Source: a virus
Lineage: Duplodnaviria > Caudoviricetes
Virus record (IMG/VR): IMGVR_UViG_3300031836_000002
Span: 1 to 64,000 of that record
Strand: one strand, 5' to 3'
DNA length: 64,000 nt
Positions within the stretch are counted from its first letter, which is position 1. Each line of letters begins with the position of its first letter. Shown piece after piece: positions 1-20,694 of this stretch. A program made the translations under genes and the position numbers. Under the pieces are notes generated by a model. It made no database searches, had not been told where the DNA came from, and saw only the letters and a program-made list of their open reading frames with translations.

Positions 1-440
1 ACGTCTGGGTAGTCGAGAACGAGGTTACCCGTAAGCGACTGCCAAATCATGAATTCCGCGAAGTTGTCAAAGCGCTGGTTGAGGTCCTTGACCTCGCGCA
101 TGACAGCCTCTTCGGCACGAACCCTGTTGAGATCCGAAAGGTTGTTTGCTGCTGCACGTAGCCAGTGGAGAGTCGTAGGTTCGAAAACCTTCTTCTCACG
201 TAGGTAGACGAATGCTGCACTCTCGGTCGAGCGTCCGAGACGAGGCACAATGTGCGCTTCGCTGTTCGGAACGTTCGGACGAGCGATTGCTCGGCTACCA
301 CGTAGCACTTCCCACTGAACAGTGGGGAATGGCCAAGGCGTCTGTGGGACGCGATTGAGCATGGTGAGCTTCTCGGGAGCGGTGAACTTCTCCACCACAC
401 CCCGCAGCACTGTGGGCTGGAGGAGGGAAATTTCAGGCAC
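1..440 (-). CDS. Major capsid protein, 5' part (truncated at window edge)
   Basis: Not in the ORF track. GTG at 440 with SD AAGGAG upstream; frame open to the window edge (VPEISLLQPTVLRGVVEKFTAP...REKKVFEPTTLHWLR...LNQRFDNFAEFMIWQSLTG), resembling lambda gpE-type capsids; lies directly downstream of the protease/scaffold and decoration genes. Confidence 0.85.
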   Translation of the reverse strand, partial: MPEISLLQPTVLRGVVEKFTAPEKLTMLNRVPQTPWPFPTVQWEVLRGSRAIARPNVPNSEAHIVPRLGRSTESAAFVYLREKKVFEPTTLHWLRAAANNLSDLNRVRAEEAVMREVKDLNQRFDNFAEFMIWQSLTGNLVLDYPD

Positions 441-454
441 CGTAATCTCCTTAT

Positions 455-590
455 CGTTGCCTATTGGAATAGGAATCAGCGACCCGGAGGCCCGACCTGC
501 ACCTCCCCCAAATGGGGGACACTAGGCTGGTCTAGTTGAGTTTCTCTTCGAGCTACTCAAGGATCGGTACCTACAAGAGGTACCTCACCT
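455..590 (-). ncRNA. Putative structured RNA leader between decoration and major capsid genes
   Basis: Consecutive inverted repeats: CCTATT/AATAGG 460-473, TCCCCC/GGGGGA 504-519, ACTAG/CTAGT 521-536, TTGAGT/ACTCAA 536-560, GGTACCT/AGGTACC 566-584. Confidence 0.4.
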
Positions 591-2168: not shown

Positions 2169-2444
2169 TTAGTCGAAGCTAGTGTCTGCTGAGGCTTGAT
2201 CTAGGACAGCTTCCAAGTCTTCCAGCGTGCTCGGATAAACCGTCCACATGGCCGTGGGGGTGGGAGTGGAGTCTGAGAGCTGGTCAATCCAGTCTTCCCA
2301 CTCCACGGCACTGCCTCTAGCGGCCACCACCAAGGCTCCATAAGCCTTCAAATTGGTGTGGGTGGGGTCGTAGTAGCTTTCCGTCTCTGTGTAGACACCC
2401 ACGGGGATCCCACTTGCTGTTTGGTGAAGTAGATAATCAGACAT
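2169..2444 (-). CDS. Small acidic hypothetical protein, candidate immunity protein
   Basis: 91 aa; overlaps the upstream small gene; second of two small ORFs after the giant effector gene. Confidence 0.55.
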   Translation of the reverse strand: MSDYLLHQTASGIPVGVYTETESYYDPTHTNLKAYGALVVAARGSAVEWEDWIDQLSDSTPTPTAMWTVYPSTLEDLEAVLDQASADTSFD

Positions 2445-2748
2445 CGTAGGAATCCAGTTCCTTCTTCAAAAGTCGCCCTTTCAGTTCCGGAGCTTTTCTC
2501 CAGACCCAGCTCTGTTTCGGGGTGGTAACGAACCACTCACTCTCTACTTCCTCGATGGAATTTATCTGAAGGATGACATCCTTCTCAGGATGCACTATCA
2601 GAGAGACCTCCAGCTCGTCTTTGTCGTCAGAGACATTTCCTAGAAGGACTATCAGATCAAGATCTGTCTTGTCACTGATGGCGTGCACTCCGAAAGGGAA
2701 GAAGGCTTTGAACTTCTTCGTAAACTCTTCTTTTGTTATTTGAGCCAT
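2437..2748 (-). CDS. Small acidic hypothetical protein, candidate immunity protein
   Basis: 103 aa; overlaps the stop of the giant effector gene (translational coupling). Confidence 0.55.
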   Translation of the reverse strand: MAQITKEEFTKKFKAFFPFGVHAISDKTDLDLIVLLGNVSDDKDELEVSLIVHPEKDVILQINSIEEVESEWFVTTPKQSWVWRKAPELKGRLLKKELDSYDV

Positions 2749-5700
2749 TGCTTCTTCACCTTGTTCAGTGCTTCCAGTACGTTAGCTTTCATCACCAAGC
2801 GCTCCTCAATAGGAAGCCCTCGGATCATTTCAATGCCACGCTTCTTCAGTGCCTGTATCGCGTGATTTCTCTTGGCTGAGTCCTTGAAAGCGTACACCTC
2901 AACGATGTCCAGCAAGGCTGCCGAATGGGGAAGCATGGTCTCGTTAGCTGATCCGGTGAACTTCTCCAACGCGTACTTGGGATTGGATGGAGCATCCGAA
3001 GACTTCCACTGCACATCCCCATAGCGGTCATAGGAGTAGGAGTACGTCCGAGTACGGAGAAGAGCTGCTGGGTCGAAGAAAGCATTGAAGCTGTTGTGTT
3101 CAGAAATCGAATGGATTCTGGTGTACACGTTGCTGGCAGAGTCATTGGTCTGGTCAGTTGTGGCTGACATTCCATTGACCCAGTAACCGTTCTGGCGAAG
3201 ACGTTCTTCCGCTCCCAGTGAGCCTCCTACAAGAGATTGTCGGAGAGGGTCATTCGTGGATGATGTCATCAGCATCTTCCCTGTCTCTCGGATCTCCTCC
3301 GGTGTGAAGTCGTAGCGGATCCAGTGGGGCTTTCCTGTTTCCATTTCAGGCTGGGACATCATCTGGTGGTCGTATTGTGGCAGGTAAAGCTCCTCTTTCA
3401 GAACTCTGCTGACCTTCTCTTCTCCGAAGTGCTTGGTGTGGAGGTCTCTCCAGAAAGTTAGCTCCTCTTGAGAGGTCATGGAGTCGCTAAGAGTCTCTAG
3501 GAACGTCTCAGACACGTCACTCTTCTGCGTCTTGAAGTCTTGCAGGTCAGCCTTGGCTGCGGCGTATGGAGACCCTACCTCGTGCATTCTGTTGTCGAGG
3601 ATCTGGTACATCTCCCTCCAGTACACCAGCTCGGCTCCAGCCTCGTCCATGGGAGTGGAGTCGATACCCATGGTCTGAAGAATTCCCTCGATTCTCTCCA
3701 AGGAGTTCGCTACAGCTGCTGTGTCCTTACCAGATCCGTCTGCTCGGAACATCACCTTGCCTCGTTGGCTGGCTACGGTGTTGGTCTGTCCACTATTTCG
3801 GAAAAATACACGCTCACCAGTATCAAGCTTGATCTCGTACTCGACGCCACTCGATCCCTCGACGCCTCCTGTGGATTCCGGGTTGGAGGTCTTGATGTTC
3901 TCCTCCACAGATCCGGACATCTCGTTGGTGTGGTGGTTCAATTTCACGACGTAGCCGAGAGACTTGGGCTGCTCGACAGTGACCGGGGTCCACTCAGACG
4001 TGTCCAGTTCAGAGCTATTGACGAAGCTAACCTGAGCAGTGTCCAAGTTCTTCAGAAGGTACGAACCGTTCGCCATCAATGTGGCTGTCTGTACCCCATC
4101 CGGGTTCGTGTATACCTTCAAGTCATCTGAGAGATTCAATGGAGTGAACTTCTCGATTTTGGGTGCTACCTTGCCATTCTCCTCATGGGCCTTTTCAATG
4201 TCTGCCAGACGTGGTTGGTAGAAGTCCAGAAGCATCTTGTACTGATCCACATGGACCATGGGCACAGTGGTTCCAGACTTGAACTTGTAGTGGTCCACTC
4301 CCACCACGGAGATGTTCGAGATGAGGTTCGGTGACCACTCCTCAAAATCTTCTCTAATGGTCTTTGCCGTCTCTGCAAATTTGGTCATCTTCGCGGCGTT
4401 GTAATCCTTGTCCAACGCGTGATGGTTCACGGTCTTCGCGGCATCCAAGAGACTGGAGTGATGAACATCCACAGCGCTGAATCCCTGAGAGGCTGACTTG
4501 TCCTTGTCAAACTGAGCTGTAGCCGTCTGGAGGAACTCAAGGACAGCTTTCTGCTTCTTCGGTCCAAGTGTTAGCTCACCCAGAAGGTTTTTACTTCCAC
4601 TCTCGTACTCATCTGTCCAGACAGTGGCGAAGCCTCCTTGAATGTCAGCTCCTCCCACCATGGTGGATTTTCCAACTGAGCCGGTGGTCAATACCTGTTC
4701 GTGTAGTCGAGAGTCTCCCAGACCTGAAAGTACATCGCCCAAAGGGGTGTCTGGGATCTCTGGAAGGACTCCAAGCTTGGAGTCTTTGTAGGCTCCTGCC
4801 CAGAGGGTTTCGAAGTCTACACTCAGGTGGTCTCGCCGGTCTAGAACAGCTGCCATGAGACCTTCAAAGTCCTGTGATACCAACGTGCCGTCGATCTTGT
4901 AGGGAACGTCATAGCCCGTGTCTCTGCTCTTCATTCCTTCGACCATCAAGTCTCGGATAGAGGCATCATCAATCTTCGAGACGTTGGTAATTCGACGTTG
5001 GATCTTGAGGTAGGCCGCGTCTGCTGTGGCTTTGTCGATCTTTCCTGCACGCATGGAGTCGAACAGTTGGGTGTAGACGGTCTTGGCGTTGCTGTCTGCT
5101 TTGTGGTCCCCGGAGAGTCCCTTCCACGAGCCATACGATCTGAACGCTCGACCCTTGTCAATTCCGACAATCTTTCCACTGCCATCAATGATGGCGTTGT
5201 CACCCTTTGTGTCGTCGTTGTCTAGGAGCCAGTCAAGAACGTGCTCCCCTCCGACCCCGGCGATCTGATCCACACTCAGGGTTCCGTAGTCGGCTCCCAT
5301 GAGGTCACCCACGCCATGTACCTTGGACTGCAATAGGCCATACTGGCCATCAATGGTGACCAGACGAGGCTCAGCGGAGTTGAATCCCCAGAGGCGTCCC
5401 AGAGAGTTTCCTAGCCCTTCGACCTCGGCTCTGAATCGTCCATTGTCGGTGTCTGGACGCGGCTTGAAGAAGTAGTCGTTTCCGTGCTGGTCGGAGTACT
5501 CCGCAATGGGGTGTGTGCCTTGCTTGACCGTCTGGAGAGGCTTCTTGGTGTACACCGGAATCAAAGACTCTAGGTACTGCTCGTGAGACTTCTTTTGGAA
5601 ATAATCGGTGACAGCCTTGTTCTTGACAATCGACGGGTTTCCAAATGTGCTTGCCGCTAATGCTTCTTCGTAGATCGCTGTCAGTTCCGGGTTGCTCTCT

Positions 5701-8700
5701 GCCACATCGTCGTAGTACTTCTCGGAAAGAGAAGTTGTCCAGCCCTCGGTGGGGAATTGGGAGTTGTCGAACAGTTGATCATATGCCTTGGCTGGAACGA
5801 TGTCATCGGTCCACTCCACAGGATCAGAGAGGGTTTTGTTTCCGTCCTTGGATCGCTTCTGTGCCGATAGAGATAGCTTGTCTACCAAAGCCTTTTGATT
5901 GTTTCGGTGAGCAAACACCCAAGCGCGTCGATCTGCCACCGTCAAGTGCTCTGGGTATTTCATTTGAGCCTTGATCAAATAGTTGTCTAGCTCAGCTATG
6001 GGGATTTGGGTTGTTCCCATCGGAGTCCAGTCACCCTTGACTGGTCGAAGTGCTGACACCTCTCCGGGGACTGCTGCTGCCCAGTGGACCTTGTGGGTTC
6101 CTTCATTCTCTTGGTAGCCGGGGTGCTTGTATCCAGATTTGTGTGCTTTTCCCTCGGCTGCTGCGGCTTTCACTTCGATGTTGTACACCTGAACGAAGTC
6201 GCCCTTGTTGAAGGCTGAGATCCACTGCTGCTTGTCGTAGATGTCCATCTTGGTGGAATGCAGACCAATAATCTCACCGTTGCCTATGGACATTGAAGCT
6301 TTCTTGATCCAAGCCTTTTTCTCTGCGTTGGTGGTCACGTTTACCGAGTCCATCAACTCTTCGGGCATGACAGCGGATCCTTGGATGTCCCAAGTGAAGA
6401 GCTTCGTGGTGTTGGAATCCGGGATCTCTGTATTCACGCCCGCGAGCATGGCGTCTACTGCATCTGCTACAACTTTGAGCTTGTCGTCATTGCTCTGGGA
6501 AGTACTCTTGTCGTCATCGAATGGGGTGCTGGGCTGCTCGACGGCATACTTAAGGACAAGAGCTGCTTCGTATACTGCTCCAGCTTCCTTCACAGCATTG
6601 ACTACCTTATTCTGCTCAGCTAGGGTGCCTTTGTTCTCTGAGGTCTCGTACTCCTTGAATAGCTTCTGTGCTTCCAAGAGAGAGTACGTGGACACCTCCT
6701 TGCCAAAAAATGTCACATCTCCTGTGTACCCCTGAGGCAGCACGGAGTTTCCGAACTCATCCGTGAGCTTTCCCTGAACAAAGAGGGTCTGAATCTTTGC
6801 CTTGGTGAGCTGAACAGGTTCTGCATCTCCGTGAGATTTGATCTTGTAGTAGGGGTAGTAGCTGGACGCAGACTTCAATACCTCTTCAGGAGTGGGGTCC
6901 CCATTCGACTTCTTCCACGAGCCATCTGCTTGCTTGGTGTGGCTATCCATATCGTCATAGTTGCCCACGATCTGTGCACCTGTGGAGGCCTCGAACAGCC
7001 ACAGAGCTGTAGTCTTCTGTCCTATCTTTCCTGTCGAGCCAACAGTCGCACTCTTGGGTTTGGTGACAGTAACTACGTCTCCATTGACTTCATACGTCCA
7101 CGCCTTCGCCCCGGAAGGAGAACCGTTGAAGTACGTGCCGTCTTCCAAAGCCTCTACGTTTTTCAATTTAGGCTTGAGGACTGACTTGTTCGTGCTCGAA
7201 GTCTTCTTTTCCGCTGGCTCTGGGTAGTCGCTAGGAATACCTAGGTACTTGTTCATTCCGGCCTTGTGGTTAGCCTTCACCTTGGCTGTCGTCAGGGAGG
7301 TGGCCGCACCTGTGGAGTTGACGTATACTCCTGTGCCATCTTCCTTGACCACCATGTACGTTGGTCCTCCGCCTGTGTACTTTCCGGGATGCAGACCACT
7401 CTTGTTCTTCTCTGTGTCGATCTCGTCTAGCTTCTTCAGCTGACCAAGAGACGCTGCATTCTTTTGGGTACCTCCTATCCCAATTGAGATTCCCTCTTCG
7501 TCCGCGTTGAAGAACTCCCATTGAGTGTCGGTGGTCTTTGTGTGGAAGCCTCCGAAGGTGTCTTCAAATATGTCACCCTTCTTGGCATTCTCTACATCCG
7601 CTGGGGTCGCATCGGCGTTGTCGGAGTAATCAAGACCGTCATCAGAGTTGGGGAGCTTCTTGAGGATGTCTCCTATGGGGTCCTGAGAATCTTCTTCGAG
7701 AAGCTCAGTCTTCAGTTCAGGGATGGATCCGTAAACAGTGCTTTCCCAGACATCATCATCTGAGAAGAGTCCCGTGAGGACTCCATCGTCATCCAAGTAA
7801 TTCCATTGGTCTGTCTGCGTCTTCAGGAAGTGTCCTCCAGCCTCGGCTGGTACCACGGTTCCTTCAGGAGCATTGATGATGTCGGCTGCCTCGGTAAGCC
7901 CATCTCCCACGTTCTTCGATGTCTTCTCTTCCTCGGCCTGCGGGAACTTGGTCAGCTTGCTCTTCAGAAGGTCGATGAACTTCTGCTTGGTGACGGTCTT
8001 GTCCTTGTCGAACCCTACGATGTCATTGGGGCTGAGCTTTCCTAGAGCGTTGCCTTTCTTGTTCAGCTCGCTCTTGAAGATCTTCCCGTTGAAGCCTTCG
8101 AGGATCTCGATGGCTTGCTCGATGTCGTCCTTGGTGAAGGCTCCTCCAGTCTCACCGGTGGGTGTGGTCTGGGACTCTGCACTTCCGATGTTGACCGTGG
8201 GGCCTTCAGAGTTCTTCTCTTTCTTGGTCTCCGTCTTGATTCCAAGCTTGTCCTTCAGCATCTGAACCACGCCCTGCTTGGGAGGTAGGTCCGGGTGGGC
8301 AGTCTTAGCCCATACCTTGAGTTGGTCCTTCGGTAGCTTGGCTAGAGGGTTCTCAGGAACCGACTTCAGTCCGTAGGCGATCTGGAATGATGGGTGACCC
8401 TCCAGAGCATTCAGAGCCTCTTGCATCTCATCAGGGGAGAAACTCTCGCCGCCTGTCTCGAAGGTCGTTTCGAGAGGGTCTGGGTTCCCTGAGTCCTTAG
8501 AGGCCACCGAGAACTTACCGCTAGCTGCGGAGTTCTTGAGGTCGGAGGAAAGAAGAGTTTGACCTCCGGGAGTCAGCCATTTTCCGGTGTCGAGCTTGGT
8601 GTACTGGCTAAGCTTCCCATCCTTCTTAGCAAAGTTGAGTATGGTTCCATTTTCCAGTTCGTCCATCTGCTCGTAGCTTGTGATGACTCCTTCTGGGGCC

Positions 8701-10304
8701 TTCTCTGGGGCCTTCACAGAGTAAACAATCTCACCCTGATAGTTAGAAATGATGGACTCTAGAGCAGTTGAGTCTACGTCGCTCCCAAATTTACTGTGAG
8801 TCCAGACTCCGCCAGCAAGCTTCTCCCAGTTCAGAGGGTCACTAGGCACACTCGAATAACCCAGCTTGTATTTGTAGTCAATCACGGTGCCGGGTCTGTA
8901 ACCCTCAAGATCCGAAAGGGTGAAGCCTTTCATTGCATCGTCAGGCTCTTCAGTTGATTGTGGCTTAGCCTCTTCAACTTCCGTGGGGGAGGGGATCGAG
9001 TACACCCGTCCGGATTCCAGTGCCTCAGCAAAGGTCTCGGTGGGCCACTCCCATCCCATGTCCGGCTCAACATCTACTGCTTCTTCGGTGTCTTTTTTCT
9101 TGAATGTGAGGAAGGATTTTTCTGAGGTGGGGTTATTAAGAGCCTGCACAAAGAAACCGTCTGGCTCAACCTCATCCAAGGAACTGACCAGCTCTGCTCC
9201 CTCAGGAAGGTTCAGAGACTCCTTAGATGCGACCTTAGGGGCCTCTTCTGTCTTGTCTGGGGTCTCGGTTACTTCTTTGTCCTTTGGGGCCTCTACGGGC
9301 GGCTCAGCGTCAGGTGTTGGCGCTGGGGCCTCATCCGATGGAAGTCCACCGTTTGAGTCTTCTTCCACTGGGGCAGGCCCCATGACTAGGAGACCCTTCA
9401 GAAGAGCCAGCTGTGGGGACTCGATCTGGGCCTCAATGCCTTCTGTTCCCCACGCGCCACTCTCAAGCTTTGTTGTGTTGGCTCCAGACGGACCCGGAAG
9501 GTGGACAGTGGTTCCTACAGCCATAGCCTCAAGAGCTGCTGTAGCTGCCGGAAGATCCATTTCTGAAAATGAGGTCTCAGCCACTTCACCGAAGGTGCTC
9601 TGAAGAGCTTCATCCTCTGGAGTCTTCTCAGGGATCAACTCACCAGAATCGTAGAAGCCCTGAAGGTCCTTCTCGTCCACCTCGACATTGAGCTGTACGT
9701 GACGCCAAGACTTCTCTGAGACCTTGGTGAACTGAGGCTCACCATCTGGGTCTGTGAGTGTGGATCCCACGGGAAGGGATGGCATCGAGTAAGGGCTGGC
9801 CGTTGCCTCGAAGTCGATCTCTTCGTATTTTTCGTCTTTCTCCAGATTTCCAGAGAACTTGACCTTGAGCACATTCTTGAGTCCTGTTGGGATGCTTACC
9901 TCGCCACCGGCTGTGAATGCGTGCACCTCGCCTTCCGGGGTCAGGACGTAGAGGAAGGCCGCTGTTTCCTTGTTCTTCGACTTGATCAGTTTTGATCCTG
10001 CGGGGGCCGAGTACTTCGAGTTCCCTACGGAGAATTTCTTGTTTCCGGTAAGGGCAGACTTCGAGGTCTTGATGGAGGCTTCCACAGCCTTGGCCGTGGA
10101 CGCTGAGGGTGCGCCAGAGATGGCATTCTTTGGAGGAGTGATCCCCAACTTAGCTGCCGACTTTTGCTTGGTCTCCTCCACATCTGGGGTGATGATCGAC
10201 CCTACGGGCAGGCCATAGAACTCCGCTCCCTCTACCGTCCGGACGAACCTAGGATCCGCGGCTAGAAGAATGAGATCTTCCAGCAAGTTGTTCGAGTCGT
10301 TCAC
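2736..10304 (-). CDS. Giant (~2520 aa) polyvalent virion-associated protein: targeting-like N-terminus, repeats, HipA/PI3-PI4-kinase-like domain, C-terminal ART-like domain
   Basis: Start revised to GTG 10304 (SD AGGAGA overlapping the upstream stop). Kinase-like motifs YFFKP, RAEVE..N.L..LWG, DWLLDNDDTKGDN, GIDKGRAF (~4780-5560). C-terminal EERL..G...GMS...D....ASNVYTR...NETM pattern. Located between MuF and protease. Confidence 0.7.
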   Translation of the reverse strand: MNDSNNLLEDLILLAADPRFVRTVEGAEFYGLPVGSIITPDVEETKQKSAAKLGITPPKNAISGAPSASTAKAVEASIKTSKSALTGNKKFSVGNSKYSAPAGSKLIKSKNKETAAFLYVLTPEGEVHAFTAGGEVSIPTGLKNVLKVKFSGNLEKDEKYEEIDFEATASPYSMPSLPVGSTLTDPDGEPQFTKVSEKSWRHVQLNVEVDEKDLQGFYDSGELIPEKTPEDEALQSTFGEVAETSFSEMDLPAATAALEAMAVGTTVHLPGPSGANTTKLESGAWGTEGIEAQIESPQLALLKGLLVMGPAPVEEDSNGGLPSDEAPAPTPDAEPPVEAPKDKEVTETPDKTEEAPKVASKESLNLPEGAELVSSLDEVEPDGFFVQALNNPTSEKSFLTFKKKDTEEAVDVEPDMGWEWPTETFAEALESGRVYSIPSPTEVEEAKPQSTEEPDDAMKGFTLSDLEGYRPGTVIDYKYKLGYSSVPSDPLNWEKLAGGVWTHSKFGSDVDSTALESIISNYQGEIVYSVKAPEKAPEGVITSYEQMDELENGTILNFAKKDGKLSQYTKLDTGKWLTPGGQTLLSSDLKNSAASGKFSVASKDSGNPDPLETTFETGGESFSPDEMQEALNALEGHPSFQIAYGLKSVPENPLAKLPKDQLKVWAKTAHPDLPPKQGVVQMLKDKLGIKTETKKEKNSEGPTVNIGSAESQTTPTGETGGAFTKDDIEQAIEILEGFNGKIFKSELNKKGNALGKLSPNDIVGFDKDKTVTKQKFIDLLKSKLTKFPQAEEEKTSKNVGDGLTEAADIINAPEGTVVPAEAGGHFLKTQTDQWNYLDDDGVLTGLFSDDDVWESTVYGSIPELKTELLEEDSQDPIGDILKKLPNSDDGLDYSDNADATPADVENAKKGDIFEDTFGGFHTKTTDTQWEFFNADEEGISIGIGGTQKNAASLGQLKKLDEIDTEKNKSGLHPGKYTGGGPTYMVVKEDGTGVYVNSTGAATSLTTAKVKANHKAGMNKYLGIPSDYPEPAEKKTSSTNKSVLKPKLKNVEALEDGTYFNGSPSGAKAWTYEVNGDVVTVTKPKSATVGSTGKIGQKTTALWLFEASTGAQIVGNYDDMDSHTKQADGSWKKSNGDPTPEEVLKSASSYYPYYKIKSHGDAEPVQLTKAKIQTLFVQGKLTDEFGNSVLPQGYTGDVTFFGKEVSTYSLLEAQKLFKEYETSENKGTLAEQNKVVNAVKEAGAVYEAALVLKYAVEQPSTPFDDDKSTSQSNDDKLKVVADAVDAMLAGVNTEIPDSNTTKLFTWDIQGSAVMPEELMDSVNVTTNAEKKAWIKKASMSIGNGEIIGLHSTKMDIYDKQQWISAFNKGDFVQVYNIEVKAAAAEGKAHKSGYKHPGYQENEGTHKVHWAAAVPGEVSALRPVKGDWTPMGTTQIPIAELDNYLIKAQMKYPEHLTVADRRAWVFAHRNNQKALVDKLSLSAQKRSKDGNKTLSDPVEWTDDIVPAKAYDQLFDNSQFPTEGWTTSLSEKYYDDVAESNPELTAIYEEALAASTFGNPSIVKNKAVTDYFQKKSHEQYLESLIPVYTKKPLQTVKQGTHPIAEYSDQHGNDYFFKPRPDTDNGRFRAEVEGLGNSLGRLWGFNSAEPRLVTIDGQYGLLQSKVHGVGDLMGADYGTLSVDQIAGVGGEHVLDWLLDNDDTKGDNAIIDGSGKIVGIDKGRAFRSYGSWKGLSGDHKADSNAKTVYTQLFDSMRAGKIDKATADAAYLKIQRRITNVSKIDDASIRDLMVEGMKSRDTGYDVPYKIDGTLVSQDFEGLMAAVLDRRDHLSVDFETLWAGAYKDSKLGVLPEIPDTPLGDVLSGLGDSRLHEQVLTTGSVGKSTMVGGADIQGGFATVWTDEYESGSKNLLGELTLGPKKQKAVLEFLQTATAQFDKDKSASQGFSAVDVHHSSLLDAAKTVNHHALDKDYNAAKMTKFAETAKTIREDFEEWSPNLISNISVVGVDHYKFKSGTTVPMVHVDQYKMLLDFYQPRLADIEKAHEENGKVAPKIEKFTPLNLSDDLKVYTNPDGVQTATLMANGSYLLKNLDTAQVSFVNSSELDTSEWTPVTVEQPKSLGYVVKLNHHTNEMSGSVEENIKTSNPESTGGVEGSSGVEYEIKLDTGERVFFRNSGQTNTVASQRGKVMFRADGSGKDTAAVANSLERIEGILQTMGIDSTPMDEAGAELVYWREMYQILDNRMHEVGSPYAAAKADLQDFKTQKSDVSETFLETLSDSMTSQEELTFWRDLHTKHFGEEKVSRVLKEELYLPQYDHQMMSQPEMETGKPHWIRYDFTPEEIRETGKMLMTSSTNDPLRQSLVGGSLGAEERLRQNGYWVNGMSATTDQTNDSASNVYTRIHSISEHNSFNAFFDPAALLRTRTYSYSYDRYGDVQWKSSDAPSNPKYALEKFTGSANETMLPHSAALLDIVEVYAFKDSAKRNHAIQALKKRGIEMIRGLPIEERLVMKANVLEALNKVKKQWLK

Positions 10305-10311
10305 GGTTCTC

Positions 10312-10533
10312 CTAATCGTCGTACCGGATAGCTCCCGGAACTTCTTCAAGCTTAGATGCGACCGTTTCTATGTCTCCTTCGAGATGAAGACCAGAAACAA
10401 GAATTTGTGCTGCGCTCAAGCTGCCGAACTGATACTTACTATCGGTCTTTCGCGCATCCTCTAGAACCATGAGTAGTCCTGTCGCTGCTGCCCCAAGACT
10501 ATCAAAGAAGAATCTTGCTGTGGTTCCGGACAT
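10312..10533 (-). CDS. Hypothetical protein (73 aa)
   Basis: Fills the gap between MuF and the giant gene; its stop overlaps the SD of the giant gene. Confidence 0.6.
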   Translation of the reverse strand: MSGTTARFFFDSLGAAATGLLMVLEDARKTDSKYQFGSLSAAQILVSGLHLEGDIETVASKLEEVPGAIRYDD

Positions 10534-10535
10534 GG

Positions 10536-11330
10536 TTAGACTCCCGTGACGAACGAAATAATCTTCTTTAGTGCACCTATGATGGCTGAAAAAATCTTGA
10601 GTGGGAGTCTTTGAACTCCATCGGTGTCCATGGTCTGCTGAGGCTCTCCGGGGGACTCAATGTCTAGTTCCTCGAAGGCGTTCTCTAGTGACACCACCAG
10701 AATCACCAAACAGCACCGACAGCGTGGGTGCCTTGGGGGACCTTGAAGGTTAACGTACACCCCCGGAGAATTCCCTGTCACGGGGAATTCATCATTGAGT
10801 CTCACCACGGTGCCATGAAGTCGTCGGCAATGCTCGCACGGAGTGTTGTTGACGAAGTTAGCTAGCCACAACTTCTTGAGCTGGTGTCCAAAGTCTGAAA
10901 GCTCCGCGTAGGAAGCAATCAGGGCATCTGTGTATCCACGCTGCGCACCAACTCCGGCGCTGTGCTGCATTCGAAGGAGGGCCTTACGCCGAGCCTTATC
11001 TTCTTTGTCGCTGGACTTGTAATCCCGGAGGTTACGTCGGATGTCTGAGATGAGGTCCTTGAGGTACTGGGTATTGAAAATCTGGCCCTGTGGGTACCAT
11101 CCGGGGATCTCGGACTGTCGTGCGGTGTGTTCGGCTGCCACGGCTGCACTGGTCCTATACGCGGCGCGGACGATGGCTTCCAGACGATACCGGACAGTCT
11201 GAGCATTCAACTCACCACGATCCCATGCGTCGAACGCTTCGGAGATGTGTACTCTGACCTGATCCTCTATTGAAGAGGCTGCTAGGTGGGCTACACGGGC
11301 TGCCGCGAGCTGCTCCCCAAAACTAGCCAT
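10536..11330 (-). CDS. MuF-like minor head protein
   Basis: KKLW...TPCEHCRRLHG...PPRHPRCRC, the characteristic Phage_Mu_F Cys/His motif; downstream of portal. Confidence 0.85.
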   Translation of the reverse strand: MASFGEQLAAARVAHLAASSIEDQVRVHISEAFDAWDRGELNAQTVRYRLEAIVRAAYRTSAAVAAEHTARQSEIPGWYPQGQIFNTQYLKDLISDIRRNLRDYKSSDKEDKARRKALLRMQHSAGVGAQRGYTDALIASYAELSDFGHQLKKLWLANFVNNTPCEHCRRLHGTVVRLNDEFPVTGNSPGVYVNLQGPPRHPRCRCCLVILVVSLENAFEELDIESPGEPQQTMDTDGVQRLPLKIFSAIIGALKKIISFVTGV

Positions 11331-11616
11331 CAGACTTTCCCGTGGCCTCGCGAGAGAGGATCGCTGTCACTTCGGAGGAGGTTTTTCCTTCCGAGAACAC
11401 TCGAAGCTCTTCTATGAACTTCAGCTTGAGCGTCTTTCTCAAGTCTTGGTTTCCAGTCTTGTCTGCTTTCTGGATCTGCCGTTGAAGAGACTGGAGACGA
11501 ACAAATGTCACCGGTCTGGGTTCGGGGAGAACTTCACTGCCTTTTCCAATCTCGGAGCCGACAGGCTTGTTGAAGTGCTTCTCACCCGCAGGCGTCAAGA
11601 CTTGGCGCGGGGCCAT
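11323..11616 (-). CDS. 97-aa protein carrying the shared N-terminal effector signature
   Basis: RQVLTPAGEKHFNKPVGSEI aligns with the N-termini of the 1044-aa and giant proteins. Confidence 0.65.
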   Translation of the reverse strand: MAPRQVLTPAGEKHFNKPVGSEIGKGSEVLPEPRPVTFVRLQSLQRQIQKADKTGNQDLRKTLKLKFIEELRVFSEGKTSSEVTAILSREATGKSDG

Positions 11617-11617
11617 A

Positions 11618-11815
11618 CTAGCTCCAGTCGCTGGGGATGGTCATCTGCTGACCGGGCTTGAGGTTGTTGAAGTCGTTCTCTATGAGGTCATAGTAGTCCT
11701 CTACAGCCTCAACGCGATCTGCTGGAACGCTGTTATCTTCTAGGTACTTCTCCACTGGATGTTCTGCCATCACATATGAGGAGATCCTAGACATCTCATC
11801 TACTGTCAATTTCAT
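11618..11815 (-). CDS. Small acidic protein, candidate antitoxin/immunity
   Basis: 65 aa, very acidic; second small gene behind the 1044-aa toxin-domain protein. Confidence 0.55.
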   Translation of the reverse strand: MKLTVDEMSRISSYVMAEHPVEKYLEDNSVPADRVEAVEDYYDLIENDFNNLKPGQQMTIPSDWS

Positions 11816-11827
11816 GATTGTTCCGTC

Positions 11828-12037
11828 CTAGGCGAAAGCCTCTGGTGTGAGCTTCCGTGCTTTTTTCTCGTCTATGGCGTCCGTGCCAATCTCGTTGTTA
11901 TAGATCCGCTCGTACAAGCTAGGAGCAACATTTACCCATGCTGATGTCTTCGTGTCCCAGCGCTCTTGTGTGCTCTCCTCTGAGGAGTACCGAAACAGTG
12001 CCCTTACGGACTCTTTGTAATAATACTGAATTTTCAT
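11828..12037 (-). CDS. Candidate immunity protein for the alarmone-synthetase domain
   Basis: 69 aa with YY..LFR...E.WD...W...Y.RI.....I.E..A.KL pattern; directly follows the RelA/SpoT-like C-terminal domain; has its own SD (GGAGGTG) and promoter. Confidence 0.6.
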   Translation of the reverse strand: MKIQYYYKESVRALFRYSSEESTQERWDTKTSAWVNVAPSLYERIYNNEIGTDAIDEKKARKLTPEAFA

Positions 12038-12083
12038 ATTTCACCTCCACTACCACTATAACAGACAGATTGCATTTGAAATC
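12038..12083 (-). promoter_or_regulatory. Internal promoter with the phage palindrome, in front of the candidate immunity genes
   Basis: Minus strand GATTTCAAATGCAATC-N7-TATAGT with extended -10 TG, same geometry as the early cassettes. Confidence 0.65.
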
Positions 12084-15000
12084 TTACGAGATGGCTGAGA
12101 AATTATCTTCCGATGGAATGTCGTTGGCCATCGAGAACATGGCCACGTCCAGCTCAGTGGCCCGTTCACGTTTCTCAGGAGTCAGCGGAGGTGGGCTGAA
12201 GATGGCTCGTCGTTCCTCGTAAAGAGCGTGCATTCTTTCCATCTTCACATCCAGTGATTCTGGGGTGTGGAACTGAAGCTCGTAGGTTAGCCCATCCTTG
12301 GTTGTCACTGCGGTGTTGATTCCTCGGTAAGGAATATCTGTACTCCCCCACGAGTTTTTCACGCGGACGGTGTTTCCCTCGGCACGTAGCTCATCAATCG
12401 CTGATTGAGAGGTCTCCACGTAGCTTCGAGAGTCTGTCACCATGGTGTAGCGAACAGTGTCCCCTAGTTTCTCTCTGGCTTGTGCGTGCGTGATTCCGTC
12501 TGTGGTGGCATCCTTCCGGATCTTTCTCTCCAGAGAGTCCTTCTCCTTGAGTTTGAAGTCCAGTCCGGAAAGCTCTGCCTTCAGGGAATCGGCCAGTTTC
12601 TGTATTCTGGACGTAACAACCGGCTCTTCTGCGGTGGCTTGCTCGTAGGCCTCATCGGTCAGTGCAGAAATCTGCTCATCGGACCCTTCGGGAAGATCCG
12701 CACTGCTTGGACGCCCTGAGGCTACTTTCTTGGCTGCCGCTACCTTCTTGGCTGCCGCTACCTTCTTGGCTGCCGCTACCTTCTTGGCTGCTGCGGCTTT
12801 CTTGGTTGCCTTCTTCTCGGCAACCACCTTCGGAACCTTGAATCCATCCCAAGCTGACTCTCCTGAGGATAGGTAGCTGTCGAATGCTTTCTGGTTAGTG
12901 ACATTGAAAGACTTGCCGTCACCGCTTCCGACCAACGTGGCGGGCTTTCCATCCACATTGTTGTCGAACAGGTTCACCTTGTCGAAGGTTCCATCGTCCT
13001 TCAAGGCGTCAAAGATCTCAGGAAGAACCGCGTAGGTTCCTCGGATCTGAGCTTCTGGAACAATTCGGTGGGAACGCTCGGCACGGGTCTGTGCTCGTGA
13101 GATTCCCTGCCGTGGTTCTAGGTACAGGTAGTTGGCCTCTACTGCGTAGCCTGCCTTGCGGGCTGCTCTCACCTTTGCTCTAACAGAGTCTGCACTGCCA
13201 TTTCCGGTGCCATCGTAGATCACATTGTATCCGCGGTCGAGCGCTGCTGAGTGGAGGCGCTTGGCTAGCTGGCTTGACTCCTCGTGGGAGTGACCTGCCC
13301 AGCTCATGTCTTCCTTCTCGTAGTCTCCGGAGCGGATGCGCTCTAGTGCTAGTTTCACTTCCGGGAACTGCATCTTCACAGCATCCGGGTCGATAAGCAA
13401 GGCTCCGGGGGTTCCCTCGAAAGGCTCAAGGTCGCCGGTGGCGTCGTCCACAGCACGAGATGTGGGGTACTTCGTCAGCTCGGCGTTTCTACCCTTGGTC
13501 ATGGATCCCTTGCCAGAGGCTGGGCCTCCACCGTTCATGTACTGAACAGGGTTGTCCTGAGGCTCTAGTCCTACAAGGAAGTCAGAGATAATCTTGTCAT
13601 GCAATTTCTTGCGGGCTGCCGTGAACTCGCCCTTCTCATTCACGTGCGCTGACGTATAGGGGCTGGCGGACAGTGCTTTGATCTCACCCTCGTCTGGAAT
13701 GCGTGCTGACTTCTCTCCCAAGCTCTTGGGGTTCCGCTTGAATCCCGCCCTGTCGGCGGATGTTTCAGTCTTTGGGGAGGAAGACACTGATGACTTGGCG
13801 GCTTCTACCGCTGAGTCGTAGTCAGCCGCATACTCTCCCTCACCGGGGGTGTATGGAGTGTCAAGCTTGCTCTCGTCGTAAGCCAAGAAAGTAACGTCTG
13901 GCTCTCCTCCGTTGAAAGCTGCGTAGTCTTTCTTGTTCCAGTCGTCCGGAGCTTCGTCGTCGTCCCACTTGAGTCGTGATTTGACTCGAAGTCCTTCCAG
14001 AGCGTAGATTCCGGGGAGCACTGTGTCGAATGCGTCTGCTCGTCGCCCACCTTGAGAAATTGCTGTGGCCATGAGATGTCTGGCTACTTTCTTGTTCTCA
14101 CTGGAGGGGTCTGCCCACACCGAAACAATCTCATCACCATCCTTAAGAGCCATTCCAGATTTTCCATCTTCGGACATGAAGAGTCGCATCTCGGAGTACT
14201 CACTCTCGTCGTACACCCAGACAGAGCTAGAGAATTTGTTGTTCTCCTTCATCTTCTGCATGGCGGAGTGAAATCTGGAAGCTTCAGCTTTTGATTCGAG
14301 TTCGTAAATTACTGGAGTGGAACCACCAGCGGCTTTGATTACCGCGTTACGCTTTGTTCCGTTCTTGAAAACGGCTTTGGTTTTGACGGAAGAACCATCA
14401 ACTACAAGCCCATCTCCTCCGCTGCCTGAATCCGCTCGTCTGTCCAGTGTTTTTGGATCTGACTCTTTTGCTCCGGTGTCGCGTCCTCCGGAGTCACGTA
14501 CTTCAGGTACGCTTTTCTGGCTTCCGGCGTCAGTGGACTTATCGGAGTATTTTTCTCCATTGTTTGACCTTTTTTCGTCTCTTGTTTTATTGAGATTATC
14601 ACGATTTGAAGTCTCTGAGGCATTCTTCGCCTTGTCGTTCGCATCCATGTTTGGAGTTTTCGGATCACCCGTCACATCAGTGAGATCTCCTGAGGAGTCC
14701 GCCATGAGAGATTTGACGCGAGCCTCTGTCGTAGAGGACAGCTCGACCTCTCCCTTGCTGTTGAAGAATCGAACAGATCCATCAGGAAGTACCAACATGG
14801 TGGCGTCTGGAGCGCTTGAGTGTGTGAAGGCTTTGGACCCAGCGGGGGCTTCGTAGTCAGAGCCTCCGGCTGTGAATTTCGTGGGTCCAGAAAGCGTCGG
14901 TGTGGTAACCTTGGCCTTCCCTTTGACCTTCCGAGATGCCTTGGTGCTGACCTTTCCTGCTTTAGGCGTCTCCGCGGCTGCCTTGGCTGCTGCGGCCTTG

Positions 15001-15218
15001 GGATTGGCCTTAGCGGTCTTTACCTGTGCGGGGGCTGAATTCTCCGGGAGAGCTGCTGTAGAGCCTCTACTGGTAGTTCTGGACTGCTTGGAGGCTCCCT
15101 TGGGTGGTGGCTTACCTTTGTTGGCCTTGCGTGCTTTATCAAGAACGTCAGCGGTGATGGGTGTACCAATGGGAAGGCCGTAGTACCGAGACCCCTCTGG
15201 GCTTGCAACCTTACGCAT
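12084..15218 (-). CDS. 1044-aa polyvalent effector: GNAT-like, zeta-toxin-like P-loop kinase and small alarmone synthetase (RelA/SpoT-like) domains
   Basis: GNAT-like segment (GGRRADAFDTVLPGIYALEG..., ~13870-14290); P-loop GGGPASGKGS, IDPDAVK, HEESS, VIYDGT (~12880-13660); LKEKDSLERKI..DTVRYT..YRGIN..YELQFHTPES..H.LYE (~12090-12660). Confidence 0.8.
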   Translation of the reverse strand: MRKVASPEGSRYYGLPIGTPITADVLDKARKANKGKPPPKGASKQSRTTSRGSTAALPENSAPAQVKTAKANPKAAAAKAAAETPKAGKVSTKASRKVKGKAKVTTPTLSGPTKFTAGGSDYEAPAGSKAFTHSSAPDATMLVLPDGSVRFFNSKGEVELSSTTEARVKSLMADSSGDLTDVTGDPKTPNMDANDKAKNASETSNRDNLNKTRDEKRSNNGEKYSDKSTDAGSQKSVPEVRDSGGRDTGAKESDPKTLDRRADSGSGGDGLVVDGSSVKTKAVFKNGTKRNAVIKAAGGSTPVIYELESKAEASRFHSAMQKMKENNKFSSSVWVYDESEYSEMRLFMSEDGKSGMALKDGDEIVSVWADPSSENKKVARHLMATAISQGGRRADAFDTVLPGIYALEGLRVKSRLKWDDDEAPDDWNKKDYAAFNGGEPDVTFLAYDESKLDTPYTPGEGEYAADYDSAVEAAKSSVSSSPKTETSADRAGFKRNPKSLGEKSARIPDEGEIKALSASPYTSAHVNEKGEFTAARKKLHDKIISDFLVGLEPQDNPVQYMNGGGPASGKGSMTKGRNAELTKYPTSRAVDDATGDLEPFEGTPGALLIDPDAVKMQFPEVKLALERIRSGDYEKEDMSWAGHSHEESSQLAKRLHSAALDRGYNVIYDGTGNGSADSVRAKVRAARKAGYAVEANYLYLEPRQGISRAQTRAERSHRIVPEAQIRGTYAVLPEIFDALKDDGTFDKVNLFDNNVDGKPATLVGSGDGKSFNVTNQKAFDSYLSSGESAWDGFKVPKVVAEKKATKKAAAAKKVAAAKKVAAAKKVAAAKKVASGRPSSADLPEGSDEQISALTDEAYEQATAEEPVVTSRIQKLADSLKAELSGLDFKLKEKDSLERKIRKDATTDGITHAQAREKLGDTVRYTMVTDSRSYVETSQSAIDELRAEGNTVRVKNSWGSTDIPYRGINTAVTTKDGLTYELQFHTPESLDVKMERMHALYEERRAIFSPPPLTPEKRERATELDVAMFSMANDIPSEDNFSAIS
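12721..12792. repeat. Tandem 18-bp repeat x4 encoding (AAKKVA)n linker
   Basis: GCTACCTTCTTGGCTGCC x4 (near-identical), between the zeta and SAS domains. Confidence 0.95.
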
Positions 15219-16878
15219 GGTTCATATCCTCCGCTGCCATATCCAACATCTCCCGCGCCAACGATAGTAGCCCAGAACCATCTCCAGTCAGGGACAGCCG
15301 TCTCTCGAACTCTTCCAGATCTTCGTCCTTCTCATCCGGGGGTTTTTCTTCTGCTCCCACGTCTGAAATCTTCTTTAGGAATTCTTCCAGAGTCCAGTCT
15401 CCCTCTAGTCCCAGTTCGGATCCTGCTACGTCTACCGGGGCTGCTGGATCTACCGGGGCTGCTGAGGGATCAACACCCTGCTGCTGAGCTGCCAGATCTT
15501 GTGCCTCTGCCTCTGCCTCAGCCTCAGCCTCCTCACTCTCTCGCATATCCACTTCGTCGTAGTCAATCTCCAAACCAAACTCTTCTGCTTGGTGCTCTTC
15601 GAGCGCTCGCAGGAACTCGGGGGTAACCGTGGTCTGGTTGGCCAGCTTGTCGAACGTGGCTGCAATTGCACCCTTTTGTTCGTCTGTGAGCTTTCCCCAT
15701 GTGAAGGTGGGGTACCGACCTCCGGTGAAGTTGTAGTCCACAAGCTGAGGAATAATGTAGTGGTTGATCTGGGCTGCAATGTCGTCCATGACGGCTCGAA
15801 GCATCAACACAAACATGTCGTCGCCGGGGGCTGCAAAGTTGACTAGAGAACCTTCTCCGGCTCCCGCTCCTTGCTCCTTGTCGAAGAACGACGCGAGGAT
15901 GGACTTCGACATCTGAGAGTTGTGGTGGTTCACCCAGTTCAAGAATTCGAAGGATCCGGCTTCCTTGAGCACCTCTACCTTGAATCCTTCAGGCATCATC
16001 ATCCACTGAGCCAGTGCGAGGTTGGCTAGTGAGGTGTTGAATTCCTTCTTGGACGCTGTAGTGGCACCTGCCGGTACTGTTCCCACGCGGGTACCTACGG
16101 CTGCACGCTGTGCAGCCAAGTGAGCAATGAAGTAGGTCTTGACTTTCTTGTCATAGTGATAAAAAGCAGACTGGAAGAAGCTAACTCCGTAGAACTTGCG
16201 CTCTTCTTCTTGTGCTGCGTAGTAGAAGGCTTGCTCGCGTGGGATGAAAACGTCGAGCTGCTTTCCTCCCATGTAGGAGCGCTGACGCAGGCCGGAGAAC
16301 CCTCCAGACTTGTCCACTATGAACGTGACAGTCTCTGCTGGACGGTGTGCCAGCTTCTTGAGGGTGATCTTCCCAGCAAGAGGTCCGGTCTCAGGTGCCC
16401 AGAAAACCTTCTCGAAGGCTGCAAAGCCATCGAACATTCCCTGAAGCATTTGGCTGATGAATCGGTGGAAGGTGACTGTCATTCCACCACTCTCAGGAGG
16501 AGTTCGTAAGACTGCACTGATGAAGTCTGCTTCCTCTTCTCCATCCTCGGCAGGGACGAACGTAGCGGTGCTCAGAGCTGATCTGATCGGTAGAGTCAAG
16601 AGACGGTAAAGAGCGCGTGCTTGGCCATCCATACGGCGCATGGTGACAAGCTGGCGGACAGTGGGTCCCCACTCTTCACTCTCGTCGCGGAAGACTTCCT
16701 GTAGGTCCTTTTGAGGATCCTTCTTAGTACCATTCTTGATTGGCTGGTACGGAGAAGCGAATGGAAGTAGGGAGTCGGAGCCTAGCTCTACGTTCAGAGC
16801 GGCGATCTCTATGCTCGCAGGCTTGGGTGTCTTCTTCTTGCGATTCGATGTCGGTGTGACCTCATCGTCTTTGGCCAT
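15211..16878 (-). CDS. Portal protein (Mu gp29-like)
   Basis: 555 aa directly after TerL; M.RMDGQARA, GFAAFEKV, YGVS.FQSA, HHNSQMSKSILA, IIPQLVDYNF patterns; acidic C-terminal tail. Confidence 0.88.
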   Translation of the reverse strand: MAKDDEVTPTSNRKKKTPKPASIEIAALNVELGSDSLLPFASPYQPIKNGTKKDPQKDLQEVFRDESEEWGPTVRQLVTMRRMDGQARALYRLLTLPIRSALSTATFVPAEDGEEEADFISAVLRTPPESGGMTVTFHRFISQMLQGMFDGFAAFEKVFWAPETGPLAGKITLKKLAHRPAETVTFIVDKSGGFSGLRQRSYMGGKQLDVFIPREQAFYYAAQEEERKFYGVSFFQSAFYHYDKKVKTYFIAHLAAQRAAVGTRVGTVPAGATTASKKEFNTSLANLALAQWMMMPEGFKVEVLKEAGSFEFLNWVNHHNSQMSKSILASFFDKEQGAGAGEGSLVNFAAPGDDMFVLMLRAVMDDIAAQINHYIIPQLVDYNFTGGRYPTFTWGKLTDEQKGAIAATFDKLANQTTVTPEFLRALEEHQAEEFGLEIDYDEVDMRESEEAEAEAEAEAQDLAAQQQGVDPSAAPVDPAAPVDVAGSELGLEGDWTLEEFLKKISDVGAEEKPPDEKDEDLEEFERRLSLTGDGSGLLSLAREMLDMAAEDMNHA

Positions 16879-20361: not shown

Positions 20362-20694
20362 CTACTTGCCCCTGCTGAAGATGCCCTGCTTCTTCGTGCC
20401 TTCGTCCGGTGTGGTCTCCGGCTCCACTGCTGGTTCTGCTGCTGGCTCCACTGCTGGTTCTGCTGCTGGCTCCACTGCTGGTTCTGCTGCTGGCTCCACT
20501 GCTGGTTCTGCTGCTGGCTCCACTGCTGGTTCTTCGGCAGGAGTTTCCTTGTCCTCTGGAGCTGCTGGAGTTCCCTGTAGCTCAGCGTATGTGGCTCCGC
20601 TGGCCATGCTCTCTCCCTCTTCGAGAGTGGAGCTGAGGACTTCCTTGCCTGCTGAGTTGATTTTCAAAATTGAGCTTGAGAAGTGAATAGTCAT
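20362..20694 (-). CDS. Low-complexity Glu/Pro/Ala-repeat protein
   Basis: 110 aa, SD AGGAG, (EPAVEPAA)n tract. Confidence 0.65.
   Translation of the reverse strand: MTIHFSSSILKINSAGKEVLSSTLEEGESMASGATYAELQGTPAAPEDKETPAEEPAVEPAAEPAVEPAAEPAVEPAAEPAVEPAAEPAVEPETTPDEGTKKQGIFSRGK
20420..20533. repeat. Tandem 24-bp repeat x~4.7
   Basis: GGCTCCACTGCTGGTTCTGCTGCT repeated. Confidence 0.95.

Follow-up and report, generated by a model that had tools for sequence, protein, structure and literature searches.

A conserved mini-domain of about 22 residues, which we call M1, is carried by three proteins encoded between the portal and prohead protease genes of IMG/VR virus record IMGVR_UViG_3300031836_000002 (Duplodnaviria; Caudoviricetes). 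The stretch analyzed here, referred to as the window, is the first 64 kb (64,000 nucleotides) of this 124,209-bp record, which has a 127-bp terminal repeat; the phage is a 124-kb actinobacterial phage whose closest isolate is Microbacterium phage Magritte. We consider it somewhat probable (roughly 55%) that M1 acts as a docking module for head incorporation that corresponds to a MuF or portal fusion and does not require MuF. During procapsid assembly, M1 would tie minor internal proteins noncovalently to a common assembly component. These would include cargo enzymes and a small protein associated with the portal; in relatives, MuF or the tail of the portal would be tied in the same way. The tagged enzymes would be enclosed in the head and would exit with the DNA at infection, with M1 doing the job of the covalent MuF or portal fusion of other phages. 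Support for this reading comes from the restriction of the three M1 copies to the interval between the portal and protease genes, the occurrence of M1 in head-module proteins only across 80 related loci, the presence of MuF, without M1, on payload fusions in three of these loci (L079 to L081), the mostly N-terminal position of first copies, the polyvalent- or toxin-type payloads, the head-gene contexts of M1 proteins, the confidently predicted local fold of M1, and the precedent of other phages described below.

M1 has the consensus R-x-V-x-[TS]-x-x-G-x3-[YF]-[GN]-x-P-[IV]-G-x-x-I. A test profile made solely from the copies of other phages, with the window sequences excluded, was searched against the 2550 six-frame open reading frames (ORFs) of the whole genome. 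Exactly three copies were found genome-wide, all between the portal and protease genes: residues 2 to 21 of a 1044-amino-acid (aa) protein (RKVASPEGSRYYGLPIGTPI; 15156-15215; expect value [E] of 7e-14), residues 19 to 38 of a 2522-aa giant protein (RFVRTVEGAEFYGLPVGSII; 10191-10250; E of 9e-11), and residues 4 to 23 of a 97-aa protein (RQVLTPAGEKHFNKPVGSEI; 11548-11607; E of 4.5e-8). The next-best ORF had an E of 0.45. The genes of the region, and with them every feature given below, are on the minus strand, and the coordinates in the original prediction, made from the DNA sequence alone, are correct. Its central observation, that three proteins between portal and protease bear the same signature, was borne out by these scores, and M1 begins at or near the N terminus in each protein (residues 2, 4, and 19 in the 1044-aa, 97-aa, and giant proteins, respectively). 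For the giant, an N-terminal signature had been claimed as well; it does lie near the N terminus, but not at the very start. The giant most likely begins at the GTG at position 10304, behind AGGAGA, rather than at the TTG at 10349, and this start places an 18-residue helix-like segment (NLLEDLILLAAD) ahead of M1, which therefore begins at residue 19. Magritte gp17 and other giants have the same helix-like segment ahead of M1.

The two large proteins have a second module, M2, in common, as BLASTP of their N-terminal 200-aa stretches revealed (E of 5e-14). M2 covers about residues 106 to 173 of the 1044-aa protein (14700-14903; M2 profile E of 4e-23) and about residues 82 to 151 of the giant (9852-10061; E of 3e-24), where it is beta-rich and modeled by AlphaFold2 with a predicted local distance difference test (pLDDT) score above 90. 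According to the M2 profile, M2 is restricted to the Magritte-like clade; only M1 is widespread. Downstream of M2, the two proteins carry unrelated payloads. In the 1044-aa protein (12084-15218), M1, a linker, and M2 are followed by a weakly GNAT-like region, a zeta-toxin-type kinase, and a small alarmone synthetase. The kinase (residues 553 to 754; 12957-13562) matched PF06414 with an E of 1.9e-20 (73.6 bits versus a cutoff of 22.3). The RelA/SpoT-type synthetase (residues 855 to 1029; 12132-12656) was identified by a phmmer match to PDB entry 8vx3, "SaSAS" (E of 4.3e-14), and by phrog_7625; no Pfam family matched this region at an E of 0.01. The protein is polyvalent, with at least two unrelated effector domains in one chain, as is the giant (see below). 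Residues 266 to 480 reached 14.1 bits against the GNAT family PF00583 (E of 0.058), under the cutoff of 20.7, and a GNAT assignment of this middle domain was dropped because the match is below threshold. The giants of two relatives (L023 and L029) carry the same weakly GNAT-like domain; payload modules move between both cargo genes.

The giant (2736-10304) is organized as a short helix, M1, a helix, "GITPPK," a linker, M2, small beta-barrel repeats, a PI4K/HipA-like kinase, and a DarT-like C terminus. It had no sequence match in Pfam, PHROGs, or PDB, and its payloads were characterized from an AlphaFold2 model of residues 1340 to 2522 (1183 aa; mean pLDDT of 84). Fold comparison of this model revealed an atypical protein/lipid-kinase fold at about residues 1583 to 1839 (4788-5558) with the motif LDWLLDNDDTKGDN...GIDKGRAF. 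In VIA-align, the kinase model had a Z score of 15.1 to PI4K II-alpha (4pla; root mean square deviation of 3.9, 224 aligned residues) and of 10.9 to HipA; the Foldseek E was 3e-4. Among 15 related giants, PF00454 was detected in three and HipA_C in one (two of the 15 have a NUDIX domain). PF00454 was not detected in the giant of the window itself, and its DNDDTKGDN...IDKG segment aligns with the PF00454-positive region of family member P0010. The giant is thus predicted to carry a PI4K/HipA-like kinase fold with catalytic-loop and metal-binding motifs. Its C-terminal domain (about residues 2331 to 2512; 2769-3314) is modeled as a DarT-like ADP-ribosyltransferase fold, assigned at the fold level (Z of 8.8 to DarT structures 7omu and 8baq, with 151 to 163 residues aligned; no Pfam match). 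The best BFVD match of the 1183-aa model was a mycobacteriophage protein annotated "ADP-ribosyltransferase" (E of 9.5e-9, with no aligned range given). These assignments agree with the original description of the large proteins as having a second shared module and then diverging into unrelated enzyme domains, here a zeta kinase and an alarmone synthetase versus a PI4K/HipA-like kinase and a DarT-like fold.

A second AlphaFold2 model covered residues 1 to 330 of the giant (mean pLDDT of 81). M1 was modeled with pLDDT values of 81 to 88 as a strand (residues 19 and 20), a helix (24 to 30), and a strand (37 and 38), followed by a helix at residues 40 to 53; two more small beta-barrels follow M2. 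The end strands of M1 are paired in the model, which would bring its ends close together and would fit insertion into a loop of MuF, as seen in relatives (see below). A confident local fold with paired ends would likewise fit a self-contained module that can stand at an end, in a loop, or between domains. Foldseek returned no match to the N-terminal model at an E of 1e-3 or lower. The best VIA-align Z score was 4.7, to SH3/Tudor-like small barrels and the TraI translocation-signal domain; this match lies at residues 169 to 226, outside M1, and is not above background.

The third M1 protein, of 97 aa (11323-11616), is portal associated and consists of M1 and a conserved helical domain (RPVT..RL.SLQRQ). 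Its counterparts are fused to the portal C terminus in five relatives (L003, L022, L027, L009, and L023); an ESM Atlas look-up with this protein gave nothing above chance. Next to it is a stand-alone MuF minor head protein of 264 aa with CxxC...HPxCxC (10536-11330; PF04233, 33 bits versus a cutoff of 29.6). In alignment, it lacks the M1 insert found in the MuF of more distant relatives. Matches to portal, MuF, and protease families identify this as a phage head module in which MuF stands alone, as originally proposed.

To place M1 in a wider context, 80 IMG/VR loci with related portals were scanned with the motif profile and the window proteins. M1 was confined to head-module proteins (portal, MuF, portal-adjacent small proteins, and giants or other cargo) and was never found on scaffold, protease, or capsid proteins; genomes had one to three copies. 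It occurred near the N termini of large proteins, giants among them, at the beginning of small proteins whose genes directly follow that of the portal, as an in-frame C-terminal fusion to the portal after an acidic linker and a "LELA" helix (at least six loci), and as an insert of about 32 residues that separates CxxC from HPxCxC within the MuF domain (in about 18 loci of more distant relatives). The portal-M1 fusions continue with the helical domain of the 97-aa type (L003, L022, L027, and L009) or with an M2-like module (L034, L035, and L038). In another relative (L089; 11178-20342), the MuF protein contains a GNAT domain and two copies of M1, and the giant encoded after it, called at 3875 aa, extends past the end of the fetched locus.

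The relationship between M1 and MuF is most evident in L081, whose giant (2830 aa; L081:11479-19968) has an N-terminal MuF domain in place of M1 while M2 and the giant body are kept. Since MuF heads a giant with the same M2 and C-terminal body, M1 and MuF are alternative heads on related giants. In three of three loci in which the payload is fused to MuF (L079, L080, and L081), the fusion protein lacks M1. MuF was searched for with PF04233 and a clade-specific MuF profile; neither search detected it in a 98%-complete relative, which has M1 on both the portal tail and the giant, and three less complete relatives were likewise negative with both profiles. MuF is therefore not an obligatory partner of M1, and MuF as the universal M1 receptor was ruled out by this near-complete genome. 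The original idea that the tag stands in for a covalent MuF fusion fared well insofar as L081 displays the predicted exchange.

Next, the distribution of M1 across protein databases was determined. A 35-column M1 profile searched against 1.84 billion representative proteins matched 1129 clusters at an E of 1e-3 or lower and 125 at an E of 1e-10 or lower. Among the best 150 matches, a ranking that favors multicopy proteins, 35 proteins had one M1 copy, 89 had two, and 26 had three to seven. In the same set, the median spacing of copies was 292 residues, and the first copy lay within 60 residues of the N terminus in 101 of 150 proteins. A hydrophobic-E-x-K segment often stands directly upstream of the M1 core. 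Pfam analysis of 61 representatives identified Topoisom_I (topoisomerase IB) in 10, ADPrib_exo_Tox, 2_5_RNA_ligase2 (2H phosphoesterase), and MuF in three each, LysM, DUF3626, Gln_amidase (deamidase), Zeta_toxin, and GNAT in two each, and PI3_PI4_kinase and ParB_N in one each. The domains linked to M1 are typical of phage polyvalent proteins or toxins, and the predicted swapping of payloads was upheld, in that M1 is joined to many different enzymes in relatives and metagenomes. The proposal of a two-part N-terminal address tag was sustained in part: M1 is shared by unrelated multienzyme proteins, but it is also found at portal C termini, inside MuF, and in up to seven internal copies, and M2 is clade restricted. 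Given these positions, M1 is better described as a modular mini-domain than as just an N-terminal leader.

Of the six metagenomic contexts of M1 proteins that were fetched, one lay on a contig too short for a judgment. In each of the remaining five (5/5), portal or MuF-like genes are next to the gene of the M1 protein, and protease, capsid, or terminase genes are also present in three of these five. The portal families differ among lineages. Existing catalogs do not describe M1: none of the Pfam matches listed covers an M1 position, PHROGs listed nothing for the N-terminal part of the 1044-aa protein, the giant, or the 97-aa protein, and the M1 profile had a single, chance-level match among PDB sequences (E of 1.1). 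With tblastn, the N-terminal 165 aa had no match in 50,697 phage records. Of two multi-M1 proteins used as tblastn queries, one matched Gordonia phages through its ADP-ribosyltransferase domain only and the other matched nothing. A DNA pattern scan of 185,579 prokaryote genomes yielded two contigs only. A 133-kb contig of Gordonia amarae NBRC 15530 (L087; NZ_BAED01000034.1), possibly a prophage or a cosequenced phage, encodes two consecutive M1-tagged proteins, the second with a GNAT-like QGFG recognized by eye. A 126-kb contig of an uncultured Cellvibrionaceae metagenome-assembled genome (L088; CAZIWB010000017.1) has a block of MuF, a 73-aa companion, and an M1-giant as in Magritte-like phages; the contig is probably of phage origin and was misassigned to that genome in binning. 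M1 is a widespread, uncataloged, and freely recombining module of phage head-module proteins. A broader reading, in which M1 is a portable, sequence-defined loading mini-domain across many phage lineages and any carrier is docked to a conserved procapsid component and enclosed, is a tentative one to which we give somewhat less than an even chance.

If M1 is a docking module, its receptor is more likely the scaffold/protease or the procapsid interior, with the portal as the second choice. The scaffold/protease is favored because M1 occurs on portal, MuF, and cargo but never on scaffold, protease, or capsid proteins, and because of a parallel with phage P22, where the portal and ejection proteins reportedly rely on scaffold for incorporation. 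A motif on portal tails and cargo would be a sequence-level counterpart of such scaffold-dependent recruitment; we know of no shared motif in P22. The candidate in the window, either as the receptor or as the processing enzyme for M1-bearing proteins, is the Mu-like prohead protease/scaffold of 360 aa (1067-2149; PF10123, phrog_328). A complex prediction with the portal (residues 20 to 500), the protease/scaffold, and a 35-residue M1 segment, run with neither controls nor the capsid protein, scored 0.00 and is evidence neither way. Several points weigh against the docking reading. Virion presence, capsid loading, and coinjection of these proteins are inferred, and the M1 fold has no recognizable solved counterpart. 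M1 is strongly conserved though portal and capsid families differ between lineages, which leaves no obvious conserved protein as its receptor; MuF, which would be the natural candidate, is missing from the 98%-complete relative, which keeps two M1 copies. Finally, M1 on the portal itself and two to seven internal copies at a median spacing of 292 aa would fit a junction or processing signal equally well.

This last point leads to the main rival, namely, that M1 and the upstream "LELA"/"E-x-K" segment form a maturation signal, a docking or cleavage site for the prohead protease, with loading achieved by other means. The protease would trim the portal tail, remove the N-terminal helix of giants, and cut multi-M1 polyproteins into enzyme units. 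The copy spacing amounts to about one M1 per domain-sized block, a conserved hydrophobic/acidic segment stands just upstream of M1, free-standing M1 proteins begin at M1 while giants and portal tails have a removable upstream helix, and prohead proteases of the S78 type accompany divergent portals in two contexts. The Mu portal gpH is reportedly processed during head assembly, and the T4 targeting sequence is both an address and a cleavage site. Nevertheless, the conserved core of M1, with its roughly 22 residues and confidently predicted fold, far exceeds known prohead protease sites in length, cleavage at the insert in the middle of MuF would split that domain in two, and M1 at residues 2 to 4 of the 1044-aa and 97-aa proteins leaves nothing useful to remove. 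We regard a maturation signal as unlikely, although it is compatible with docking and the two are not mutually exclusive. Alternatively, M1 might be a structural or DNA-contacting element of the portal-proximal interior that anchors the portal crown and internal proteins to the end of the packaged DNA and orders ejection rather than mediating loading. The broad M1 consensus is basic (VRRVRTPEGARRYGQPIG), M1 is present on portal C-terminal tails, which in solved portals point to the capsid interior, SPP1 gp7 (MuF family) binds DNA, and DNA would be a "receptor" common to every lineage. Against this, the charge is not conserved (the three window copies have a net charge of about 0 to +2), the invariant V, G, Y/F, P, I, and G are typical of a fold or a hydrophobic contact, and DNA binding could not bring proteins into the procapsid before packaging; a DNA-contacting role thus seems considerably less probable than a maturation signal.

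A further possibility is the full model of the original prediction, in which each tagged toxin-like protein would be paired with two dedicated immunity proteins encoded directly downstream. Each large gene in the window is indeed followed by two small ORFs, as had been noted, but this arrangement is not conserved: the Magritte giant is followed by one, and the number of small ORFs varies among relatives. The original count also omitted a 73-aa ORF between MuF and the giant (10312-10533; 55 ORF matches in the fetched loci). In every locus with tabulated gene order, the gene of the 73-aa protein directly follows that of MuF, even if the locus has no giant, and the protein is a conserved companion of MuF, not of the giant. 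Behind the 1044-aa gene, the 69-aa ORF (11828-12037) is an orphan that had no Pfam match, no relative in the 80 loci, and only itself as a match among 5.8 billion proteins. The acidic 65-aa ORF (11618-11815) is a near-orphan, also without a Pfam match and with itself as the sole match among the 5.8 billion proteins; its one marginal relative (E of 8e-5) lies behind the zeta-kinase protein of L004, which is a point in favor of pairing. The 103-aa ORF behind the giant (2437-2748) had no family or Pfam match and one marginal relative (L003). The 91-aa ORF (2169-2444) has relatives in L081, L034, and L006, where it is kept just upstream of the protease/scaffold gene; it tracks the protease gene and behaves like a conserved head-module gene. 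In temperate phages, cognate immunity proteins are reported to act against MuF polymorphic toxins (PMC5576092 and PMC12226406), which also speaks for such pairs. On balance, the claim of paired immunity genes found no support in these small ORFs, and the complete immunity model is very doubtful, although an orphan inhibitor might be encoded.

The proteins described here resemble phage-type polyvalent proteins (Iyer, Burroughs, Anand, de Souza, Aravind 2017; PMC5512222) in having several unrelated effector domains per chain (zeta kinase, RelA/SpoT-type synthetase, kinase, and ADP-ribosyltransferase) and in being encoded among late/head genes by portal and MuF, and packaging and injection are presumed for them too, as they are for effectors fused to MuF or to the portal (PMC5512222). 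Polyvalent proteins are linked to the head mainly by a fused MuF or portal (PMC5512222), whereas here MuF is separate and the link would be a short mini-domain matched by no Pfam model. MuF polymorphic toxins (Jamet et al. 2017; PMC5576092) similarly have variable toxin-like C termini, including an alarmone-synthetase type, a constant part for head incorporation, and a head-module location. In contrast to these toxins, the 1044-aa protein and the giant lack PF04233 (MuF is a separate 264-aa gene), have several payloads per protein, and have no recognizable immunity gene. In T4 and P1, internal proteins and the 250-kDa DarB, respectively, are loaded by means of N-terminal capsid-targeting sequences (PMC9024508). 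M1 is comparable in being a short N-terminal peptide on proteins that would likewise be enclosed in the head, with a giant enzyme in each case. The T4 and P1 signals were experimentally shown (PMC9024508), whereas the role of M1 is inferred from sequence; the P1 Dar proteins share no consensus (PMC9024508), whereas the M1 consensus is common to several proteins and more than 1000 clusters. Also unlike the T4 and P1 signals, M1 is found at C termini, in loops, and in repeats.

The remaining genes of the region place the module in its genome. The Mu-type portal of 555 aa (15211-16878; PF06074 E of 5e-36; phrog_113) is 66% identical to that of Magritte, a 133-kb phage. Magritte has the same gene order from terminase to capsid, except that the 1044-aa gene and the two small ORFs behind it are missing; a megablast search with the first 20 kb against the 50,697 phage records gave no match. 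The final helix at the portal C terminus resembles the "LELA" segment (M0) that precedes M1 in the portal-M1 fusions of relatives, and the 1044-aa cargo gene seems to occupy the precise site of the former portal/tail junction. Its start overlaps the portal stop codon (15211-15218; CATGCGTAA). Inspection of this junction for a frameshift joining both proteins revealed no slippery sequence. The large terminase of 911 aa (16881-19616) carries an HNH intein (Intein_splicing at residues 556 to 842 and HNH_3 at residues 664 to 705); the terminases of relatives have no intein or have one at other sites. Just upstream of the terminase block, a 110-aa ORF (20362-20694) consists mostly of PAVEPAAE-type tandem repeats. 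A lambda-D-like decoration protein is encoded at 611-1030, and the major capsid gene is split over the record ends (window positions 1 to 521 plus about 123482-124082), the record being circularly permuted.

How phages choose the injected enzymes that are loaded into their heads is known for a few model phages (T4 and P1), with no shared sequence rule there. If M1 is a docking module, this conserved, recombining mini-domain would be a sequence rule with which to find injected effectors in metagenomes, and it would add a third, noncovalent solution beside the MuF-fusion and portal-fusion architectures. It would also offer a direct experimental handle, since Magritte and its Microbacterium host are both cultured. 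If the broader reading is true, the presence of the motif would in itself point to effectors delivered by the virion in more than 1000 protein families, and M1 could be used to load chosen proteins into actinophage heads.

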